DNA of 10,631 nucleotides from a virus (Duplodnaviria > Heunggongvirae > Uroviricota > Caudoviricetes): the IMG/VR virus record IMGVR_UViG_2703718802_000006. One strand, written 5' to 3'. Below the pieces are notes generated by a model. It worked only from the letters and a program-made list of their open reading frames with translations, did no database searches and was not told where the DNA came from. Shown piece after piece: positions 2,342 through 10,631 of this stretch. Position 1 is the first letter of the stretch. Each line of letters begins with the position of its first letter. A program made the position numbers and the translations under genes.

Positions 2342-2730
2342 TCCTTGCGGCCGGGCGTGGAGAGCGCTTTCTCGCCTCCGGGGGAAATACCCATAAGTGT
2401 ATCGGCTGGCGTCAGTCCCCGGAGGTTGCGCCTTATCGCTGGCCATTTGAAGAAAACGGGAGAACTTTCGACCTTGCGATTGAACCGCAGATTACGACTA
2501 ATGATCTGCGTCTGATGTTGAGGCTGGCTCTTGCCGGCGGAGGAATAACAATTGCCACTCAGGAAACTTTCAGGCCATATATTGAAAGCGGTAAGCTTGT
2601 ATCGCTGCTTGATGACTTTCTTCCACAATTTCCGGGCTTCTATCTGTATTTCCCACAGCGTCGCAATATTGCACCAAAGCTCCGCGCCCTGATTGACTAC
2701 GTCAAAGAATGGCGGCAGCAATTGGCTTAA
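2320..2730 (+). pseudogene. yagP: LysR-type transcriptional regulator remnant (YagP-like): effector-binding C-terminal domain only, no HTH domain; chimeric N-terminus
   Basis: ATG at 2320 with AGGAGGA just upstream gives a 136-codon ORF overlapping the paoD 3' end by 22 nt. Residues after about position 30 read like the C-terminal substrate-binding domain of a LysR regulator, but the N-terminal DNA-binding domain is missing. The first ~22 residues (MPAPVVLILAAGRGERFLASGG) instead resemble the G-x-G-x-R motif of MobA/MocA-type nucleotidyltransferases. The longer track ORF 2188..2730 has an N-terminal extension that lies out of frame inside paoD and is not credible. Confidence 0.55.
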
Positions 2731-2856
2731 ATGTCTGCACCTGCACTGCCTGATGTCAGAACAGTATTTTGATGAATTGCCAAGGTTACAATGGCACAAA
2801 TACGGCACAGGAGGAAACGTGGTGTATTTAAATATGGGGTAACTCTTTGATTTTAA

Positions 2857-2875
2857 TGGTGCCGATAATAGGAGT
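2857..2875 (-). other. attR core: 19-nt 3'-terminal fragment of tRNA-Thr (thrW-type, ptwF-like), not a functional tRNA
   Basis: Minus strand 2875->2857 reads ACTCCTATTATCGGCACCA: the end of the T-arm, the 3' acceptor strand TATCGGC (complementary to a 5' GCCGATA), discriminator A and CCA. The match to a tRNA body stops at 2876 (C where the T-stem needs G). The CCA end faces the pao/yagP flank and the 5' side faces the integrase, as expected for the duplicated core at the attR end of a tRNA-integrated element. Confidence 0.7.
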
Positions 2876-2876
2876 G

Positions 2877-2990
2877 TAACACGCGATAAATCTTGTGTTC
2901 GGGTCTTCTTCTACGACCTTCGCAACTACCTGATTTAACGATTTTTACGCACACTGATAATCTGGCATTCATCATGCACATGATAAACGC
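2877..2990 (+). repeat. Imperfect direct repeats of a CAC-N-(T)GATAA motif in the att arm between core and int (candidate integrase arm-type sites or int promoter elements)
   Basis: cacgcGATAAa at 2880-2890, cacacTGATAAtc at 2951-2962, cacaTGATAAac at 2977-2988. The last two are 26 bp apart and lie immediately upstream of the int start. Confidence 0.3.
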
Positions 2991-3014
2991 CCCTAAACTT
3001 TAACGGGGTGGAAA

Positions 3015-4229
3015 ATGAAATACAAGCCGGATCAATACATCATCTCTGATAGTTACGGAGTTTATTACGTCAGGATCTCAATTCCTATATGGCTTCGTAA
3101 TGCATTTGGTGGAAGAAAAACTCTCGTCCGTAGTCTGAACACTTCCGATCTTCGTGTGGCACGTAGGAAGCGTGATGTTATAGCAGACGAGTTTCACCAC
3201 ATCAGGCAAATTGCAGAGCCACCAAAACCGGACAGCCTGCAGGACACAATCAGCTATCTAAAGAGCGTTGCTAAGTACGCAAAAGCTGCCCCGAAAGCAT
3301 CAGCGCCAATTATCTCCCAATGCCCCTCTCTGAATAAGATGTTGGAGATTTACCTCACGCATAACGCTGATCGCCTGAAAATTGGAACATTAAGCAAGAC
3401 CAGGAAAGCCGTAGAACTGTTTCTGAATTACCTGCGAAAGAAGGATGTGGAACTAAACGATATCAACCGTACCACCGTTACAGGCTGGCTTGATCATCTC
3501 CGAGAAACAAAGGCAGTCCAAACAGTGGCTAACTATCTTTCTGCAATGGCAAACATTCTCGATCTTGCCTCTTCCCGATACCAGGACGCCCCACAGCTGG
3601 AAAGTAACGTATTCAGAGGGCATAAACTCAACACAGCGCAGAGCCGCCAGAGTTACGAGGCATTCACGGACGAAGAAATTACGAAGCTCATTAGCACGTT
3701 TAACAAGTTAGGAGAGGACGAATTAAGGGATTTAAGCGCCATAGCCGCTTATAGCGGAATGCGCATCAATGAAATAGCCAGTTTGAAATCTGACAATATC
3801 CGTGAAGTTGAGGGGGTGTTATGTTTCGATGTATTGGAAGGAAAGACAGCTAACGCTTCCAGGCTAATCCCATGCCATAGTGCGATTAAAACAATGGTCC
3901 TGGAACGCTGCCAGAAGCCGCACAACGGCTTTTTATTTTACCGTGCAAGTGTGACCAAGAGAGAGGACGGCAAGCGCTCCTCATGGCACGTAAACCGCTT
4001 TGGACGGCTTAAACGCGATATTCTCCCAGGGCAAGAAAACAAGGTGTTTCACTCGTACCGCCATGCCGTGATCAGTAAGCTAAACGCCGCCGGAGTGGAT
4101 GAATCTCGTATTGCCTTGCTCGCGGGCCACTCATTTGGAGAAACTGAATCTTTCAAGACGTATTCGAAATCCGTTCCTGAGCGAATAGTGAAGGAACTAA
4201 AAGAATATATCGAATTAATCAAATATTAA
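3015..4229 (+). CDS. Tyrosine-type site-specific integrase (phage integrase family), 404 aa
   Basis: ATG at 3015 with a G-rich SD (GGGGTGG). Box I Arg context (AYSGMRINEIASL), box II HxxR (FHSYRHAVISKL), a downstream LAGHS His and a C-terminal Tyr (FKTYSKS). The N-terminus (GVYYVRISIP...GGRKTLVRSLNTSDLRVARRKRD) matches the pattern of N-terminal arm-binding domains of island/P4-type integrases. Located next to the tRNA-derived att core. Confidence 0.9.
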   Translation: MKYKPDQYIISDSYGVYYVRISIPIWLRNAFGGRKTLVRSLNTSDLRVARRKRDVIADEFHHIRQIAEPPKPDSLQDTISYLKSVAKYAKAAPKASAPIISQCPSLNKMLEIYLTHNADRLKIGTLSKTRKAVELFLNYLRKKDVELNDINRTTVTGWLDHLRETKAVQTVANYLSAMANILDLASSRYQDAPQLESNVFRGHKLNTAQSRQSYEAFTDEEITKLISTFNKLGEDELRDLSAIAAYSGMRINEIASLKSDNIREVEGVLCFDVLEGKTANASRLIPCHSAIKTMVLERCQKPHNGFLFYRASVTKREDGKRSSWHVNRFGRLKRDILPGQENKVFHSYRHAVISKLNAAGVDESRIALLAGHSFGETESFKTYSKSVPERIVKELKEYIELIKY

Positions 4230-4243
4230 AATACCTTAAATGT

Positions 4244-4270
4244 GAGGGGGAATCCCCCTCTATTTTATTT
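4244..4270 (+). terminator. Bidirectional rho-independent terminator between convergent int and the 92-aa gene
   Basis: Perfect inverted repeat GAGGGGG-aat-CCCCCTC (4244-4260) followed by TATTTTATTT. The T-tract overlaps the stop codon (4265-4267) of the convergent minus-strand gene. Confidence 0.7.
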
Positions 4271-4543
4271 ATACCATACACTTTGCATATATTGCGATGT
4301 TTCAGATGAAATATTATACCAATATGCATAATTATTTGTTGCATCTACAACTATCAATTTATCATCACTATCCATCGCTTTATGAACTATTTGCGCTGCC
4401 TGTTCAGAATTGTAATGTGAATTAACATACCAATTTGATTCTGTAACTTTGACTGCTACGCCCAATGATTTAATAGCTTCGTAAACTGCTGGATAGTTTT
4501 TAGTTTTGATCAAGTCATAGGTTACAAAAAGATTGTTAGCCAT
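4265..4543 (-). CDS. Hypothetical 92-aa protein, AT-rich; predicted alternating beta/alpha pattern loosely reminiscent of Cas2/VapD-like ferredoxin-fold small nucleases (speculative)
   Basis: ATG at 4543-4541 with GGAGAG SD 8 nt upstream; stop at 4265. N-terminus LFVTYDL followed by a helix-like segment then VAVKVTESNWYVNS resembles the beta1-alpha1-beta2 start of Cas2/VapD-type proteins. Aromatic-rich C-terminus. No confident family assignment. Confidence 0.6.
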   Translation of the reverse strand: MANNLFVTYDLIKTKNYPAVYEAIKSLGVAVKVTESNWYVNSHYNSEQAAQIVHKAMDSDDKLIVVDATNNYAYWYNISSETSQYMQSVWYK

Positions 4544-4881: not shown

Positions 4882-6753
4882 TCACCCCCCTGTGCTGCTC
4901 TGACCGCTCAAGGCTGACAAGGTGAGCGACTGTGTAAAACTGGCTTGTGAGGCTCTCGCCTGGAAATCAATGTAATCGCTCAGCCTTGAGCTATCGCTGG
5001 CGATAGTTAGCGGAACAGACGCTTCAAGATTGAGATTGAATACAGGTGCAAGATTGTACGCTGGCGCACTATTGGTGCTGGTTAGGGATGATATAGCAGA
5101 ATCACGAAGCGCTCCCCCTTTCAGAGAATCACCATTCAGGCCGTATTGTTCTACCGCTGTCCCTGTAGGCTGATCATCTATCCCTAACCAACCTTTAACG
5201 GCATGACCTACACTACGGCTGTCCCACCCTGTCTTGTCCTGCACCCAATCGGCAGCACTGTTGGCACTTCCTGTAACAGCACCATCATACAAACTCTGTG
5301 CCGCTGGCTTATCGCTACCAGTGAACCATTGAGGGAAACGTTCTTTCAGCCCTGCATTGATATCACTCACAACACTGGAAATCTCACCCACAAACCCAGT
5401 GATTTCTTTCGAGAGATTGCCTAAGCCCTCTCCAAGCATTCCCGCCGCTTCGGTGATAATTTTGGTTTTCCTTACCAGATCGTCGCCCCCATCGGCAAAG
5501 CCTTTCATCCAGCCTGTAAACAACTGATTGTCTATTCCATTCATCAGATTACCCATAGCAACACTCAAATCGCCATACTCATAAACCTGCTTGATCATTT
5601 CGTCGTTCAGCGTCTGACCGGACTCAATGAGAGTTCTTAGCGTCTTGTTATACTCTGCACCGTTGTTCATGAACATATCGGTGTAGTGCATCAGGTCATC
5701 ACCTAAACTCTCAATCAGCGTACCAATCTGAGCCTGTGACATACCACGGCGTTGCCCTTCATTCACCGTAGCTTGAACAAAATCGAGTGGTGAATCTTGG
5801 AACTTGGAAATCTGATCCTTACTCCATCCAAATTTGTTCATTATCGACGTAATGCCACCATCCCCACCCTTCCATTCGCCATTCTTCATTTGAGCATCGT
5901 TAACAGTCATGGCGAGGCGTTCACGCACATCTTTCATGTTATCGACGGCTTTTGAGGTATTAGCTGAATCAACACCGTGTTGCTGTCCCCAGGCCACCAT
6001 CGTTTTTATGGCGTTTGGGTTGGTTTTCACACGTTCACTCATTCTCACCAGTTCGAGGTTATCATTCCCTTTGTCAATAATTCGCTGCCCCACTCCGAGG
6101 GAGCCAGCCGTTAACGCAAGGCTTCCTAATACCCCACCACCGACGATAGGAGCATTCCCGCCCTTCTGAGCCTTTAGCTTAGTGGCTGCTGCGGCATACT
6201 GGGTACGCTGTGCCTGTGTCACTTTGGCTTGCTGTGCGGCTTCTCTGCGTAACAGGGTTACACGCTCACGAATAGATGCGTTCATACGGGCACTGGTCAG
6301 ATTGCCTTTGGCAAATTCCTCTGTTTGCTGACGTATGAAACGTAACGCTTCATATTGAGATTTAAGATCAAGTCCGTATTTACCTTTAATTCCTGACACT
6401 TGTAGCCCTGCATGGCGAAGTTTAAGCTCGGCTGTCTCTTGGTGCTTCTGTAGCTGCTGCTTCGCTTTCAGATTGGCCTTTTCATCCCTGGCTTTCTGCT
6501 TCTCTGCCGCACGTTGGGCTTTCATTTCCTTCGTATCACGAGGTTTATCATTAAAACGTGCATCATCGGCTTGTTGACGAGCTTTCTGTCTGCGCTGCTT
6601 CTGAGCCTGGAAGCGAATCTTGGGATCGGCTATTTTCTGGAAGTGCTTTTGAAGGTTATCCGCTGCGGCTTTAGCCAGAGCAATGCTCTGCTTATCCACC
6701 ACGAATGTAACCGTATTGCGGATCTGACTGACCGAAATATCAAGCATCGCCAC
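4882..6753 (-). CDS. Phage tail tape-measure-like protein (about 621-623 aa): N-terminal Lys/Gln/Ala-rich coiled coil, Gly-rich hydrophobic segment, globular C-terminal part
   Basis: Track start at 6753 is a GTG; an in-frame ATG lies at 6747-6745, with an 8-nt overlap with the upstream 65-aa ORF. The coiled-coil stretch (KAQRAAEKQKARDEKANLKAKQQLQKHQ...) and the GGGVLGSLALTAGSLGVG segment are typical of tape-measure proteins. The family call is by composition and architecture only. Confidence 0.55.
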   Translation of the reverse strand: MAMLDISVSQIRNTVTFVVDKQSIALAKAAADNLQKHFQKIADPKIRFQAQKQRRQKARQQADDARFNDKPRDTKEMKAQRAAEKQKARDEKANLKAKQQLQKHQETAELKLRHAGLQVSGIKGKYGLDLKSQYEALRFIRQQTEEFAKGNLTSARMNASIRERVTLLRREAAQQAKVTQAQRTQYAAAATKLKAQKGGNAPIVGGGVLGSLALTAGSLGVGQRIIDKGNDNLELVRMSERVKTNPNAIKTMVAWGQQHGVDSANTSKAVDNMKDVRERLAMTVNDAQMKNGEWKGGDGGITSIMNKFGWSKDQISKFQDSPLDFVQATVNEGQRRGMSQAQIGTLIESLGDDLMHYTDMFMNNGAEYNKTLRTLIESGQTLNDEMIKQVYEYGDLSVAMGNLMNGIDNQLFTGWMKGFADGGDDLVRKTKIITEAAGMLGEGLGNLSKEITGFVGEISSVVSDINAGLKERFPQWFTGSDKPAAQSLYDGAVTGSANSAADWVQDKTGWDSRSVGHAVKGWLGIDDQPTGTAVEQYGLNGDSLKGGALRDSAISSLTSTNSAPAYNLAPVFNLNLEASVPLTIASDSSRLSDYIDFQARASQASFTQSLTLSALSGQSSTGG

Positions 6754-6937
6754 CGCCTTTCTTACTCACCAGATAATTAAGTGCATCTGATACACTACGC
6801 CCACGATGTAATAACTGACGTAGATGACCGTGATCTATTTCAAGCACACGACACACTCCCGCCAGATTTAATAACTCTTCTGCTGTTTCAGCATTTACGG
6901 CGAGGTGAAGCCCCGCGCTTTTTACAATCACTTGCAT
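6740..6937 (-). CDS. Hypothetical 65-aa protein, translationally coupled to the downstream tape-measure-like gene
   Basis: ATG at 6937-6935 with AGAGGAAAG SD (about 8-nt spacer). Stop TGA at 6742-6740 overlaps the ATG (6747-6745) of the next gene in the arrangement ATGCTTGA. Confidence 0.45.
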   Translation of the reverse strand: MQVIVKSAGLHLAVNAETAEELLNLAGVCRVLEIDHGHLRQLLHRGRSVSDALNYLVSKKGGGDA

Positions 6938-6960
6938 TTATCTTTCCTCTTATTCTGGAA

Positions 6961-6995
6961 ATAAAAAAGGGCGGGAACACTGGGGAGATGTTCCC
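6961..6995 (-). terminator. Rho-independent terminator downstream of the capsid gene (second of two tandem hairpins)
   Basis: On the minus strand: GGGAACA-tctccccag-TGTTCCC (6995-6973) followed by GCCC and TTTTTT (6968-6963). A second hairpin (7019-7046, stem AGCCTGA/TCAGGCT) lies just 3' of the capsid stop, with a weaker U-tract. Confidence 0.65.
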
Positions 6996-7058
6996 AACGT
7001 TCACACGCCCTATTCAAAAGCCTGATTATTGCCTGCGGGTCAGGCTCCCGCTTGCTCA

Positions 7059-8090
7059 TTAAGCAGTGATGGTGATCTTCACTTGCATACCTAACGCATG
7101 GTTCACTGGTAATGCGCTGTTTTCGTGCATAACGTGGTAAGCATCGCCGCGCTCGCTCAGGTAGCCCCAAGAGTAGTATTCAGCAGGTGCAGCATCGATC
7201 AGCGCGAAGTTGCCAGAGGCAGCGCCGTAGATGTTCTGATAAGCATTTGTGCCTTTACTGAATACCGGAACCGCCACCATGTCAGCATCATCTGGCATCT
7301 GTGCAAGGATCAGCGGATCTGTCACTTTAACAATGTCGATAGGCGCACCAGGTAGGCTAAACGTACTAACACCAGGGAGAAGCTCGTGACGCTGGTAGAA
7401 TAGGTTACGGTCGTCATATGGCGCTACATACTGGAACGCCTTAGACATACTGTCAGAGAAGCGAATCTGGCTAAATGCAGCAGGTTTAGCGAATACGATC
7501 ACTCGTTCAATCTGTCCAGCCAATCCACCTGCGGCAGCCTGAACTTTGTCTAAGATGGCATCAAAATCCTGTGCCGCTGTCGCTGTGCTCACGCTGGCTG
7601 TCATTGGCACCACACCGAACAGTTCAGCATAAGAGATCAGTAGGTCATCAGTTGCAGGCGTATAAACTTCACCTTTGAACAGAGCACGGGCCAGGTAGGA
7701 TTCACGGGTACGAAGATAGGCAATCTTATGTTTCCCTGTGTACTCGGTGTACAGGTCGGTAACGGTTTGCTCGTAGTCCGTGCCTTGCACCCTTTTCCCT
7801 TGTACGTCTACTGGTTTGAAGGTGTCTTCCCTCGCAAACCAAGGGATCTCCACCAAATATTCTTTACCATTCTGACGCGCGGTAGTGTCGTGGCTTGATG
7901 AATAACGACTCTGCGGGGTGTTAAACAGGCTGTAGTTATCATCCAGAAGCTGTGTCACCACCACTTTCGGATTCTGAACACCTACCCCGTCGAAGAGGTC
8001 GAGAGCATTCATAAGATAGTTACGTTCCGGCAGAGCCTGGAAGATTGGCGCTAAATCGACCATCTCACGCCCAATTGCGATTTTACTCAT
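7059..8090 (-). CDS. Phage major capsid protein (lambda gpE-like family), 343 aa
   Basis: ATG at 8090 with AAGGAAG SD. Size (343 aa) and sequence character fit E-type major capsid proteins, and it sits immediately downstream of a gpD-like decoration gene (D-then-E order as in lambda). Strong terminator downstream. Confidence 0.75.
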   Translation of the reverse strand: MSKIAIGREMVDLAPIFQALPERNYLMNALDLFDGVGVQNPKVVVTQLLDDNYSLFNTPQSRYSSSHDTTARQNGKEYLVEIPWFAREDTFKPVDVQGKRVQGTDYEQTVTDLYTEYTGKHKIAYLRTRESYLARALFKGEVYTPATDDLLISYAELFGVVPMTASVSTATAAQDFDAILDKVQAAAGGLAGQIERVIVFAKPAAFSQIRFSDSMSKAFQYVAPYDDRNLFYQRHELLPGVSTFSLPGAPIDIVKVTDPLILAQMPDDADMVAVPVFSKGTNAYQNIYGAASGNFALIDAAPAEYYSWGYLSERGDAYHVMHENSALPVNHALGMQVKITITA

Positions 8091-8106
8091 TATTTATCTT
8101 CCTTGA

Positions 8107-8466
8107 TTAAGAGGTGAAGAATGGACGGCATACGAACCCTTTGGATTCGAGCGTGGTGATAGCTGCGGCGTGATTAGCTGCGTGCAGGTTGTCGGCTTTC
8201 AGTGCTACGAAGCTGCCAACATTAGGCGCACGTAGGACATTCACGGTTTTACCGTCGCCAGCACTCACGAAATCACTTACCACCACAAAGGCATCATCGC
8301 CGGAGGTGTATAGAGCGCCATCAGCGCCGATAACATCGCCGCATTCAATATCTGCTGGCAGGTCGAAAACACGGCCTTCTACGACTGCAAAAGAATCAGT
8401 GGCGTAGCTCACTACGTCAGTGAAACTCTTACGAATTGGGAAAAGTTCGGTTAGGTCTACAATCAT
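8107..8466 (-). CDS. Putative head decoration protein (lambda gpD-like), 119 aa
   Basis: ATG at 8466 overlaps the stop of the upstream 71-aa ORF (ATGA), with AAGGAA SD. Small Gly/Ala/Val-rich beta-type protein directly preceding the major capsid gene. Assignment is by position and composition only. Confidence 0.5.
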   Translation of the reverse strand: MIVDLTELFPIRKSFTDVVSYATDSFAVVEGRVFDLPADIECGDVIGADGALYTSGDDAFVVVSDFVSAGDGKTVNVLRAPNVGSFVALKADNLHAANHAAAITTLESKGFVCRPFFTS

Positions 8467-8678
8467 TGTTGTTTGATTTCCTTGGATTTGATTGCGATCC
8501 GTTCCTGCATACTAAGTTGAGGTGTGTCCTCAGAAGGGAAATACTGGTCTACAGCTTTTTCTATTTCTTCAACGGTACATCCTGCCATTTCAGCCACTTT
8601 AGCTATTAACTCAGGATTAACTTGAATCACTTCGGATTTGTATTTTAGGATTCGGTCGCGATTGTTTATTAAGAACAT
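8463..8678 (-). CDS. Hypothetical 71-aa protein, first gene of the capsid operon; possible HTH-like segment (LIAKVAEMAGCTVEEIEKAV)
   Basis: ATG at 8678 with GAAGGAACAACACA upstream. Four-nt overlap with the decoration gene start. Function unknown. Confidence 0.5.
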   Translation of the reverse strand: MFLINNRDRILKYKSEVIQVNPELIAKVAEMAGCTVEEIEKAVDQYFPSEDTPQLSMQERIAIKSKEIKQQ

Positions 8679-8747
8679 TGTGTTGTTCCTTCGCGTTATA
8701 ACTGCGTTTATCCTTCCATTAATAACGGAAGTGTTACATGCAGATTG

Positions 8748-8771
8748 TTAAAAAGGGGCGATTAAGCCCCT
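8748..8771 (-). terminator. Rho-independent terminator (minus strand) at the 3' end of the ~670-bp non-coding region, just upstream of the capsid operon promoter
   Basis: Minus strand reads AGGGGC-ttaatc-GCCCCT followed by TTTT (stem 8771-8766 / 8759-8754, T-tract 8753-8750). Confidence 0.6.
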
Positions 8772-9347
8772 GGAGAATATGCCCTTGTTAGAAAGCATTC
8801 TGTTAAAATCATTTTCGTTTCGGAGGATTATGATGTTAAAGAAAGGTTTCTTGAAAAAATGAAGGGCGCAACTGTTACGAATAACAGAAGTAGGATCGCC
8901 CGTCATTGCTCCCACTTCAAAACAGAAGCCCTTCTGTCATGGCGAGAAGTGGGAATGGAATTTCTTATCACCCTGGAATAGTAATAAGAGATTGCCAGCC
9001 TGAACGTAACTACCACTGACGGCGTTTATTCAGTCTGACTGCTTATAATCCTAACGGGGTTATAAGGTTTAGAGCACGGAATATGCTCTCTGAAAGAGAA
9101 TGTGCGCGGTGATTGTTCGTTACCACCCGACACAAGTGGGAACGCCCGCGCCACCCTTTGGAACTAAACACAACAAAGGAAAACAACCAGCTTTCAGAGA
9201 GGATATTCAATGGGAGAGAGCGCCGCCTATGGGAAACGGCATTCTCAGGGAGTGCGTATTGTTATACGAGGGTGGAGTGATTCTAATACCTACCCTATAA
9301 CTTATTATGACACAAATAGCACAATATGTCAAGATATTTCGTAATAT

Positions 9348-9686
9348 TTATGTTATAGCGCATTCTTCCGCGATCTGGATGGCAAGCTCTCCGAGTTCAA
9401 CGGTGATGTGTTCCATAGCGAGGGCAAGCTCCTCCATATCATTGGCAATGCGCCACGCCTGATCCACGGTGACGGTATCCCCGTTCATCTGCACCAGGTG
9501 CTCTACAGCAGCATTCCAGTGTTCAAGGGCGGTGATTGCCTGTTCAGTGTATTGCAGCGCTTCCAGGAGCGCGGAGGGCGTTCTCTCACACCACGCCCTA
9601 TTAACAAGCCACAGGGCTGGTAGATGCCAAATATCGTGGAAATAGTTAATTAGGGTGTTCATGGTGTCCATAGTTTTATTATTCAT
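9348..9686 (-). CDS. Hypothetical 112-aa acidic, predicted helical protein (second gene of a coupled pair)
   Basis: ATG at 9686-9684 preceded by AAGGAA (7-nt spacer). Its start overlaps the stop of the upstream 127-aa gene as ATGAATAA. The 161-aa track ORF from 9833 is an out-of-frame extension into the 127-aa gene and is rejected. Confidence 0.5.
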   Translation of the reverse strand: MNNKTMDTMNTLINYFHDIWHLPALWLVNRAWCERTPSALLEALQYTEQAITALEHWNAAVEHLVQMNGDTVTVDQAWRIANDMEELALAMEHITVELGELAIQIAEECAIT

Positions 9687-10062
9687 TGTTGTTTTCCTTG
9701 TCGTCAAAGAGAATATCAAAATCTTGTATGTGGTGAGATAAGCCGTTAGTTTGGGAATACCCCACCCAGTCAACATAGTTTTCTGCGTATAGCTGCCACT
9801 TCTTAAGATTCGATGAATCAACACGGTATTCACGGCGGCGGCGTGGTTTATAGAAGACGTTATCCGAAGATGCTAAAACATCCTGCAATAGTTCAAACTC
9901 TGCCCCTACGGGCACCGTTGCAGGGTATTCTATTATTTCGGTGATCCATTCTCCTGGAATAGACTCTCGTGCGAGGTCTTGTAGAGAAGAGGTGTATTTA
10001 CGTTTGCTGGCGCGAGTGGCTTTTTCGATTCTAACAATGTTACTTCGTTCTTTTCGTCCCAT
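9679..10062 (-). CDS. Hypothetical 127-aa protein with basic N-terminus and acidic C-terminal tail
   Basis: ATG at 10062 with GAGGAA SD. N-terminus is Arg/Lys-rich (MGRKERSNIVRIEKATRASKRKY), there is an internal KPRRRREYR stretch, and the tail is acidic (FDDKENNNE). Stop TAA at 9681-9679 overlaps the next gene. Confidence 0.5.
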   Translation of the reverse strand: MGRKERSNIVRIEKATRASKRKYTSSLQDLARESIPGEWITEIIEYPATVPVGAEFELLQDVLASSDNVFYKPRRRREYRVDSSNLKKWQLYAENYVDWVGYSQTNGLSHHIQDFDILFDDKENNNE

Positions 10063-10171: not shown

Positions 10172-10456
10172 TTAGAAATTAGAGTAGATAAATTCTACAT
10201 TGTCTCGTTCGATGTGTTTCAGCGTGAATGATAGATAATGGCTTTCATCGTCGATATCGATCACACCAATGTTGCGCAGCGCACGAAGCCAGAATCTGAT
10301 CCCGTTATCACTTACACTGGATTTATCAGATAGCTCTCCGTAAGAAATTTTAGTTTTTCTGCCCTTCCAGAACCAGATAAGCGCATAATAAACGCCCTTC
10401 CCGCTATCGTTGATCTGTATCTGGTTTGTGTTGTTCAATTTTATGTATTGTATCAA
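10172..10456 (-). CDS. Hypothetical 94-aa protein, putative winged-helix-type DNA-binding regulator; TTG start
   Basis: The ORF contains no ATG or Met codon. Its first codon is TTG (10456-10454), preceded by a perfect AGGAGG SD with a 5-nt spacer. The segment ISYGELSDKSSVSDNGIRFWLRALRNIGVI resembles a recognition helix plus wing. AT-rich. Confidence 0.5.
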   Translation of the reverse strand: MIQYIKLNNTNQIQINDSGKGVYYALIWFWKGRKTKISYGELSDKSSVSDNGIRFWLRALRNIGVIDIDDESHYLSFTLKHIERDNVEFIYSNF

Positions 10457-10469
10457 TTAGTCCTCCTGA

Positions 10470-10601
10470 TTAGTTCCAGTGGCGTTGTATTGTGGCGATC
10501 CCTTTCTTCATTAGTTCAGCCGTTTGTCTTTGGGTCAATCCTTTGGATTTGTGTTCCTGTACTTCTTTACGGGTGTTGTTACCTTTAACTTTCTTTCTCA
10601 C
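10470..10601 (-). CDS. Possible 43-aa helix-turn-helix small protein (GTG start), very tentative
   Basis: Minus-strand ORF from GTG at 10601 to TAA at 10472-10470 translates to MRKKVKGNNTRKEVQEHKSKGLTQRQTAELMKKGIATIQRHWN. The segment LTQRQTAELMKKGIATIQRHW has a helix-turn-helix pattern. No good SD and a non-ATG start; below the ORF track size cut-off. Confidence 0.25.
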   Translation of the reverse strand: MRKKVKGNNTRKEVQEHKSKGLTQRQTAELMKKGIATIQRHWN

Positions 10602-10631
10602 TTTCTAGACTGGCCCCCTGAATCTCCAGAC

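Follow-up and report, generated by a model that had tools for sequence, protein, structure and literature searches.

We analyzed a 10,631-nucleotide (nt) stretch of DNA (the window; IMG/VR record IMGVR_UViG_2703718802_000006), which is Escherichia coli chromosome, 100% identical to strain RM10410, and carries an integrated element from position ~2731 on. Between two minus-strand genes of this element, at the head of an operon for a capsid protein and a tape-measure homolog, lies a gap at positions 8679-9347. This gap is non-coding DNA and not filler: comparison with related elements shows, as judged from base changes between them, that it encodes a large structured minus-strand RNA whose predicted fold is kept by compensatory changes. 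We found no literature description of the element or of the RNA. The RNA family is undescribed; the type of device, a terminator-bearing leader ahead of late genes, is already known. In the reading that we favor, to which we give about an even chance, the RNA is a constitutively transcribed, terminator-gated leader of the capsid/tail operon, and processive antitermination is needed for structural-gene expression.

The gap is conserved non-coding DNA

The minus-strand genes that bracket the gap encode proteins of 71 amino acids (aa; start at 8678) and 112 aa (stop at 9348). To collect homologs of the gap, we used the capsid protein as an anchor and, separately, a DNA pattern filtered by nhmmer; one locus (L224) was added via the 112-aa protein. 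Most matches of this loose gapped pattern in viral and metagenome collections were due to chance, and the nhmmer filter rescued 13 true loci from among them. Besides the window copy we identified 20 distinct homologs (21 sequences in total) in Enterobacteriaceae, originating from Pseudenterobacter, Scandinavium, Citrobacter, Kluyvera, Buttiauxella, Enterobacter and metagenomes. The window region itself is carried by 14 of 5,426 complete E. coli genomes. The RNA is flanked in every locus by the 112-aa gene on one side and the first capsid-operon gene on the other; this holds for 10 loci found without a protein anchor, and even where the capsid cassette has been swapped.

The RNA region is 69-88% identical in nucleotides to the window, even with capsid proteins that are only 54-59% identical, and since it is still alignable at such capsid-protein divergence the gap is not a neutral spacer. 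The elements are mosaic, with capsid cassettes and RNA sub-modules exchanged between them, so that it would not be safe to state in general that the RNA is more conserved than the capsid gene.

An initial annotation of the window had found no credible open reading frame (ORF) in the gap and had judged intergenic DNA of this kind unlikely to be filler, and we agree on both points. It had also named degraded coding sequence as a possible source of the repeats seen there. The only trace of decayed coding sequence is a set of mechanical ORFs of 40-66 aa on both strands. In no case is their position or length kept among homologs, comparison with PHROG families gave no meaningful match, and indels in the gap are not multiples of three. 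Together with the nucleotide identity given above and the strong pair covariation described below, these results leave decayed coding sequence, or a neutral spacer with chance hairpins, with next to no probability; covariation and ORF non-conservation effectively refute it.

Compensatory changes support a folded minus-strand RNA

The predicted transcript has a minimum free energy (MFE) of -175 kcal/mol and a z-score of -6.4 against shuffled sequences in the RNA sense; with -6.4 versus -6.1 for the two strands, thermodynamic z-scores did not separate the strands. We predicted a consensus fold of the whole RNA with RNAalifold on a 19-sequence alignment, which yielded 149 pairs. Standard pairs form in 90.3% of cells; sliding the partners by 1-3 columns lowers this share to 43-49%. 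Both sides change in 54 pairs, compared to 29 +/- 3 in shuffled alignments (0 of 500 reach 54) and 14-31 in slid ones. The covariation score of the whole RNA is 0.224, versus ~0.07.

For the central 220 nt we built a covariance model, R1, with an alignment of 18 sequences. In this alignment, 94% of core-domain cells are paired (~43% slid), 39 of 72 pairs change on both sides (21.8 +/- 2.5 shuffled, 6-15 slid), and the covariation score is 0.40 versus 0.08. The R1 alignment was fitted to its model and leans toward it; an independent MAFFT alignment gave the same picture. Because the sequences are related and exchange modules, independent covariation events are fewer than these cell counts.

The pairs also carry a strand signal, with 344 G-U versus 64 A-C cells and 90.3% versus 79.8% canonical pairs on the two strands. 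We assigned the RNA to the minus strand on the basis of this G-U asymmetry and of the orientation of the promoter and terminators described below. Of the options offered in the initial annotation, a minus-strand structured RNA ending at 8748-8771 is thus the one supported, by the conserved promoter, the conserved terminators, the compensatory changes and the G-U asymmetry.

Of the checks that the initial annotation had proposed, a comparative alignment with related elements revealed the strong compensatory base changes described here, and a covariance-model search of Rfam gave no family match. No family in Rfam 15, which includes C4/CI, RNAI, ROOL, GOLLD, OLE, HEARO, 6S, tmRNA, riboswitches and ribozymes, matched the window at its gathering threshold, and a relaxed search of positions 8500-9500 returned noise only (E >= 1.4), with 15-18 bits where the gathering scores are 49-90. 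Rfam likewise had no match to the homologous region in 10 related loci. Elsewhere in these 10 loci, the only match at the gathering threshold is the Hfq-binding small RNA (sRNA) isrN in a Pseudenterobacter locus (L003, 11814-11956; 149 bits), ~3.8 kb downstream of the capsid gene, and the window holds no copy of it. We also rejected a tRNA or tmRNA, as a tRNA/tmRNA scan found none.

A conserved promoter defines the predicted transcript

The initial annotation overlooked a minus-strand sigma-70 promoter at 9304-9332, which consists of a -35 box TTGACA (9332-9327), a 17-nt spacer and an extended -10 box TGtCATAAT (9312-9304). The promoter is near-consensus, with 11 of 12 matches and the TG present, and begins 15 nt past the stop codon of the 112-aa gene. 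It was found at the same place in all 18 full-length homologs. Judging from the position of the -10 box, transcription would start at ~9296-9298. The primary transcript would then span 9297 to 8750, with a longest form of ~548 nt that ends at the U-tract of a terminator, T2, and shorter forms would end at two terminator-like hairpins upstream of it, T0 (~380 nt) or T1 (~445 nt). The sequence TATAGGG is conserved 3-9 nt past the -10 box, and the RNA start UAUAGGG is kept even in distant leaders (L023, L226). A promoter scan found no sigma-70 promoter in the stretch from T2 to the start codon of the 71-aa gene.

Architecture of the RNA

We describe the RNA from its 5' end; all features lie on the minus strand. 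The 5'-terminal hairpin GGGUAGG..CCACCC (9269-9296, from the MFE fold) has a conserved GAAUCAC in its loop and shows compensation, GG/CC versus AG/CU. An optional small hairpin (9255-9268) is followed by the most invariant block of the RNA, hairpin H3 (GAGAAUGCCGUU-UCCCAUA-GGCGGCGCUCUC; 9216-9246), in which the loop motif UCCCAUAG is conserved. The H3 stem is compensated in L224 (GCACCAU..AUGGUGC), with the loop unchanged. Two homologs, L006 and L069, contain an extra inserted hairpin, CACUA-UCCCAU-AGUG, with the H3 loop motif (columns ~87-105 of alignment A10). The H3 module has thus been duplicated in these two loci, as might be expected of a protein-binding site.

Conservation of this kind could also reflect a site that acts as DNA, such as a cos/pac signal, an option raised in the initial annotation, or a terminase platform, with the inverted repeats being incidental. 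The head of a capsid module is a typical packaging-site location, and one invariant block contains CGTTTCC, which we take to be the core of the lambda cosB R sites, beside a weak cosN-like GGCGGCGCTCT. The best cosN match, however, has 3 mismatches, is at chance level (8 found, 7.4 expected) and is unconserved, and CGTTTCC, present as a single copy, is lost in L224 while compensatory changes keep the hairpin stem. We therefore rejected a lambda-like cos site. Moreover, both the G-U asymmetry and the covariation of pairs indicate an RNA, single-stranded and made from one strand, and the gap has no similarity to any phage record (blastn against 50,697 records, no match at E <= 1e-5). Overall, we regard a packaging site as very unlikely.

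The core of the RNA is a 130-nt three-way-junction domain (9079-9208, consensus fold). Its closing stem of 18-21 base pairs (arms 9188-9208 and 9079-9099) contains an 18-nt long-range inverted repeat (9079-9096/9191-9208) that the initial annotation had overlooked. The interior of the domain comprises a hairpin CCUUUG..CAAAGG (9154-9180), a GC-rich stem GGCGCGG/CCGCGC (9145-9153/9102-9111) and an apical stem (9135-9143/9116-9124). Both sides change in 12 of 19 pairs of the closing stem and in 9 of 10 pairs of the apical stem. For the closing stem, the window has UCUCUGAAAG/CUUUCAGAGA, other sequences have UUUCUGAAAG/CUUUCAGAAA and L017 has CCGUAAAG/CUUUACGG; the GC-rich stem alternates between GCGCGG/CCGCGC and GCACGG/CCGUGC.

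Downstream of the core lies a boxA-like stretch (9068-9075) that is unpaired in the MFE fold and reads GCUCUAAA in the window and GCUCUUUA in many homologs. At the aligned position, 8 of 21 homologs match the GCUCUUUA core exactly and 7 of 21 deviate from it by one mismatch; the stretch is located 35-45 nt upstream of an invariant GUCAGAC. As a boxA, it is only suggestive. The hairpin CUUAUAA-CCCCGUUAGGA-UUAUAAG that follows (9042-9066; helix 6) has a covarying stem and a conserved loop: all 5 of its 5 pairs change on both sides (CUUAUAA/UUAUAAG versus CAUUCA/UGAAUG), with the loop CCGUUAGG unchanged. Next come a domain closed by GUCAGACUGAAU/GUUCAGGCUGGC (8994-9039; helices 8 and 9), which holds the invariant GUCAGAC and a small inner hairpin, and a hairpin UCUCUUAUUACU...GGUGAUAAGAAA (8961-8991, MFE fold; helices 15-17).

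The 3' part of the RNA contains three serial terminator-like hairpins. T0 (8910-8954) has an outer stem UCCCACUUC/GAAGUGGGA around CAGAAG-GG-CUUCUG, which is followed by UUUU (8922-8919). In the outer stem (helix 18), 4 of 6 pairs change on both sides, and relatives substitute other hairpins for the inner one, each then followed by a U run. T0 is the nested inverted repeat of the initial annotation, which does exist, with the inner hairpin that had been described (CAGAAG 8923-8928, CTTCTG 8931-8936); its outer arms are at 8910-8918 (TCCCACTTC) rather than 8921-8929 and at 8946-8954 (GAAGTGGGA) rather than 8947-8955.

T1 (8854-8907), which had been overlooked, is formed by GGGCG...(inner CUGUUA-UUCG-UAACAG)...CGCCC followed by UUCAUUUUUU. 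All 5 of 5 pairs of its helix 21 change on both sides, and 4 relatives have a non-homologous CCCCCG..CGGGGG-UUCUUUUUU terminator instead. Between T1 and T2 lies a conserved hairpin, AUGCUUU-CUAACA-AGGGCAU (8779-8798; helix 23, 96.9% paired). T2 (8750-8771) is a canonical intrinsic terminator, AGGGGC-UUAAUC-GCCCCU with a U5 tract; it is the minus-strand terminator that had been placed at 8748-8771 and that reads GGGGC-TTAATC-GCCCC-TTTTT at 8750-8771. Our promoter/terminator scan missed T2, whose closing A-U pair probably uses up one U of the tract. In 6 relatives the place of T2 is taken by UUCG-loop hairpins of different sequence. Hairpins of the T1 and T2 type with U tracts are present in most homologs, and the non-homologous replacement terminators in some relatives suggest that termination itself is selected.

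A 72-nt spacer (8679-8749) separates T2 from the ATG of the 71-aa gene (8678). It contains a covarying stem-loop, CUGCAU..ACGCAG (8702-8744), and an invariant AACGCGAAGGAA with a Shine-Dalgarno sequence at 8686-8691. In E. coli CFSAN051542 (L230), an IS1 at ~8714, between T2 and the ribosome-binding site (RBS) of the 71-aa gene, separates the RNA from the capsid operon.

The remaining motifs of the initial annotation are present in the window, with several coordinates shifted by 1-11 nt. The AGAGCA/TGCTCT hairpin has arms at 9071-9076 and 9084-9089. A second copy of AAGTGGGAA (9134-9142), TACCAC..GAC (9011-9020 and 9121-9131), CCACCC (9123-9128 and 9151-9156) and TATAAT (9044-9049, within the hairpin at 9042-9066) are no more than expected by chance or are unconserved, being absent or replaced in homologs; all four are arms of RNA helices rather than repeats or a promoter. 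We also rejected a switch in which UUCCCACUU (9142-9134) competes with the T0 outer stem, since that copy is absent from most homologs.

These results bear on the iteron-containing origin that the initial annotation had offered as an option, and on a replication origin more generally. An iteron-type origin would be expected to have at least three direct repeats of ~17-22 bp, along with DnaA boxes and an AT-rich unwinding element. Iterons are not apparent, as the gap has no tandem or multi-copy repeats, only two-copy short repeat families, and 8679-9347 holds no DnaA box. An RNA-primed origin would be modeled on ColE1, whose RNA II is a structured transcript of similar size from a strong promoter; the size, strong promoter and structured transcript found here resemble it, and no primase or helicase is recognizable in the window. 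There is, however, no match to Rfam RNAI (RF00106), three terminators end the transcript, unlike a primer RNA, and in relatives other parts of the element encode candidate replication genes of the HTH_36, DUF6945 or DEAD-like type. We consider an origin of either type highly improbable.

Distant subfamilies share the layout

The element family extends to more distant subfamilies: Klebsiella (L019-22), E. coli P0032-type (L023/24), L015/16, L025-27 and Enterobacter (L226-29). Their leaders are unalignable to the window RNA by nhmmer or R1, and an R1 search left the leaders of L019, L023, L025, L027 and L015 undetected even with filters off; that of L226 was undetected as well. We read and scanned four of these leaders (L019, L023, L015 and L226). 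All four have a sigma-70-type promoter at the same place, which in L019, L023 and L226 takes the form TTGACA-17-TGn-10. Downstream of the promoter, each contains 220-560 nt of untranslated, pyrimidine-rich and hairpin-rich sequence, with 1-2 intrinsic terminators ~30-80 nt ahead of the first capsid-operon gene. L226 additionally retains CGCUCUUUACAAC, a hairpin, GUCAGAC and a CCCAUAG hairpin. The distant leaders thus share only the layout; homology to the window RNA is not established. Because they keep layout and not sequence, we consider the layout to be a property of the whole family, and the window-type RNA to be one version of it.

A model for a terminator-gated leader

The arrangement of the locus is a promoter, a leader, three serial terminator-like hairpins, and structural genes without a sigma-70 promoter of their own after T2. 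On the observed promoter, fold, terminators, synteny and family-wide layout we base a model of gene control, in which transcription itself, the efficiency of termination, antitermination and the factor responsible for it are inferred. In the resting integrated element, the promoter at 9332-9304 would fire constitutively and transcripts would stop at T0-T2. Termination would release RNAs of ~380-550 nt and keep the capsid and tape-measure genes silent. Upon induction, probably by helper-phage infection, a factor would make RNA polymerase terminator-resistant (processive antitermination), and this single promoter would then serve the entire structural operon. Such a factor could be the conserved basic 127-aa protein of the element or a protein of the helper, possibly assisted by host Nus factors. 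Its recognition elements would lie on the nascent leader, as suggested by the fixed position of the boxA-like GCUCUUUA and by the two types of conserved-loop hairpin, with loops UCCCAUAG and CCGUUAGG. Like StxS, the released RNA may in addition have a function in trans.

The model resembles the lambdoid PR'-6S/StxS-tR'-Q system. During lysogeny, the late promoter PR' of Stx phages is constantly on, with termination directly downstream of it (PMC7547250), and the terminated RNA, StxS, accumulates in the lysogen and can act in trans (PMC7547250). Both arrangements combine a strong constitutive promoter, an untranslated RNA and terminators just upstream of late or structural genes, and the read-through only after antitermination that holds for PR' is proposed here as well. 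The lambdoid PR' leader, in contrast, is ~190 nt long, whereas the leader here is ~550 nt, ornate and covarying, with three serial terminators. Also, no Q homolog was found, and the gene in the Q position encodes the 112-aa protein, predicted to be a three-helix bundle. The lambdoid system further relies on a Q-binding element at its promoter and a sigma-dependent promoter-proximal pause; the conserved TATAGGG past the -10 box might be such a pause site.

Similarly, lambda N/nut and the Nus system of rrn operons resemble this leader in its possible boxA, a GCUCUUUA-like stretch predicted to be single-stranded, which is followed within a few nucleotides by a covarying conserved-loop hairpin ahead of terminators; a small, basic and apparently disordered protein is encoded two genes upstream of the leader. 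Compared to the lambda nut boxA (CGCUCUUUA-like), the window copy GCUCUAAA is degenerate, with 2 mismatches. Unlike lambda boxB, with its GNRA-like pentaloop bound by the arginine-rich motif of N, the hairpin here has a loop of 8-11 nt (CCGUUAGG). No N homolog was found, the 127-aa protein is unrelated to N in sequence, and the RNA is ~10 times the size of nut.

In phage HK022, the put RNA, of ~70 nt and two stem-loops, is a structured nascent RNA downstream of a promoter and antiterminates in cis without a factor, and the RNA here could likewise act on the transcribing polymerase; constitutive action of the put type, however, would make three terminators pointless. The P4 immunity RNA CI (Rfam C4) and c4 of P1/P7 likewise pair a constitutive promoter with a leader RNA that controls premature termination downstream, and in P4 CI the regulator is an RNA made from the leader itself, in a satellite. 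CI/C4 RNAs differ in being ~70-80 nt long with repeated complementary sites, whereas the only internal repeat here (UUCCCACUU) is unconserved and Rfam gives no match.

Several points weigh against the leader model. Searches of Pfam, PHROGs and NCBIfam detected no N, Q or other known antiterminator, and structure prediction makes the 112-aa protein only a generic three-helix bundle and yields a low-confidence model of the 127-aa protein. The boxA-like GCUCUAAA of the window departs from the core motif at those 2 positions, and relatedness and whole-module exchange between elements inflate the covariation counts. The ornate 550-nt fold far exceeds the needs of known nut, put and qut sites, which hints at another or additional function. 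Finally, a helper-phage-specific promoter may lie downstream of T2.

The size of the fold is the starting point of our main alternative account, in which the RNA is a free-standing large structured non-coding RNA that acts mainly in trans. It might be a ribonucleoprotein (RNP) scaffold, serve as a sensor or decoy against the helper, or regulate genes of the helper or host. In that case the terminators would do no more than end the RNA gene, which would precede the capsid operon through inherited synteny. Consistent with this account are the size and ornateness of the RNA, with ~150 conserved pairs, multi-way junctions, and loops and joining strands that do not vary; the strong, apparently constitutive promoter and the 5'-terminal hairpin, as expected of a stable RNA; and the duplication of the UCCCAUAG hairpin module in some members. 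ROOL, GOLLD, OLE, HEARO and raiA are likewise hundreds of nt long, with many covarying helices and conserved junctions and loops, and are often found on prophages or mobile elements, with functions that are unknown or recently emerging. Satellites also encode trans-acting RNAs: SviR of PLE is reportedly a short base-pairing sRNA, encoded by the satellite, that acts on helper capsid genes, and PLE would thus be another phage satellite with a regulatory RNA tied to capsid gene expression. A trans-acting product is also known for the PR' leader, in the form of StxS (PMC7547250).

Against a mainly trans-acting RNA, no locus was found to have the RNA anywhere but at the start of the structural operon. 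It differs from the ornate classes in having no Rfam match at gathering or relaxed thresholds, in its narrow range (mobile elements of Enterobacteriaceae), and in always heading one operon with terminators after it. We found no significant complementarity to phage genomes or to the RBS of the operon, and thus no target as for SviR: blastn of the gap at E up to 10 gave terminator-like chance matches only, none of them in Phapecoctavirus, and pairing with the operon RBS was neither significant nor positionally conserved. Moreover, since distant subfamilies keep the layout and not the sequence, a regulatory device fits better than a catalytic or scaffold RNA. We hold a mainly trans-acting RNA to be less likely than the leader model as the whole explanation; a function in trans could coexist with the leader role, and we treat it as a serious alternative.

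The element and its proteins

Positions 1 to ~2730 of the window carry pao genes and a truncated LysR gene, which the element adjoins (region ~2392-3014). A tyrosine integrase is encoded on the plus strand (3015-4229), and the other element genes lie on the minus strand. In L023, LysR halves (787-1119 and 13375-14019) flank a ~12-kb element, and the element family therefore appears to integrate into LysR genes; the L015/L016 subfamily ends instead at an apparent tRNA 3' end. In the window strain, the right part of the element (10172-10631 and beyond; 14098-15326 in L001) is cut short by an IS2 just past the window. In MS6192 (L002), the element continues with helix-turn-helix, DUF6945-like and small genes and a second short integrase-like gene. 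A terminal-overlap test for circular contigs found none.

The operon downstream of the RNA (4882-8678) encodes, in order, proteins of 71 aa (8463-8678), 119 aa, 343 aa, 65 aa and 623 aa. The 343-aa protein is a lambda-gpE-type major capsid protein (7059-8090; PF03864, E = 1e-13) with no close relative in 50,697 phage records, the best being 27% identical, from a Curvibacter phage. Protein-family searches recognized no portal, protease or terminase in the element.

The 623-aa protein (4882-6753; named 'TolA' by PGAP) is a tape-measure homolog. Over the C-terminal 400 aa it shares 40% identity with gp254 of phage anhysbys, the gene for which lies between tail chaperone and baseplate genes, and with the tape-measure protein of more than 100 other Phapecoctavirus/Justusliebigvirus phages, which are 150-kb lytic myoviruses of E. 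coli and Klebsiella. These matches suggest that such phages are the helper or the target of the element. Some relatives have a Dit-like protein after the tape measure, and in L015 (9566-11108) and L016 (9541-11083) the Kiwa genes KwaA and KwaB replace the tape-measure gene directly after the capsid module, which suggests that the tape-measure position is a cargo hotspot for anti-phage systems. Overall, the element looks like an undescribed satellite or an anti-phage island aimed at large lytic myoviruses.

Directly upstream of the RNA promoter lies the 112-aa gene (9348-9686), followed by the 127-aa gene (9679-10062), which is conserved across all element subfamilies, and a 94-aa gene beyond it, all on the minus strand. 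The model of the 112-aa protein is a plain three-helix bundle, for which Foldseek returned generic bundles only. The 127-aa protein, whose N terminus is basic (MGRKERSNIVRIEK..KRK), also contains a KPRKRKEY motif, and its AlphaFold2 model is of low confidence and largely disordered; the protein is a candidate nucleic-acid-binding regulator. Neither protein matched Pfam, PHROGs, NCBIfam or PDB sequences. These searches and the generic Foldseek bundles gave no support to a Q- or N-like identity, which we set aside. A 92-aa gene (4265-4543, minus strand) belongs to PHROG 1090, of unknown function; its weak PADLOC match to Cas2_II (E = 2.8e-4) is probably not meaningful. In all, PADLOC found no defense-system match among the element proteins beyond two weak ones.

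Implications

Large, well-folded bacterial RNAs outside known families are rare, and OLE, ROOL, GOLLD and HEARO/omega RNA each led to new biology. The RNA described here might represent a new class of large (~450-550 nt) ornate RNA that works as a functional RNP or sensor, detecting a helper and switching on or joining satellite capsid-tail assembly; we regard this as rather doubtful. If true, such an RNA would be made constitutively by a widespread, undescribed satellite-like family of Enterobacteriaceae with its own capsid and tape measure. Its clear boundaries, set by promoter and terminators, the comparative structure model and the fixed context make the RNA directly testable.

Moreover, our analysis draws attention to common, uncharacterized integrative elements in Enterobacter, Klebsiella, Citrobacter, Cronobacter and E. 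coli; homologs of the flanking proteins are common in the first four of these and in related genera, and all are annotated 'hypothetical'. Large lytic coliphages of the kind related to the element by its tape measure appear in phage-therapy collections. If the RNA gates the capsid and tape-measure genes, it would act as the switch in what may be a satellite or anti-phage system directed against these phages.

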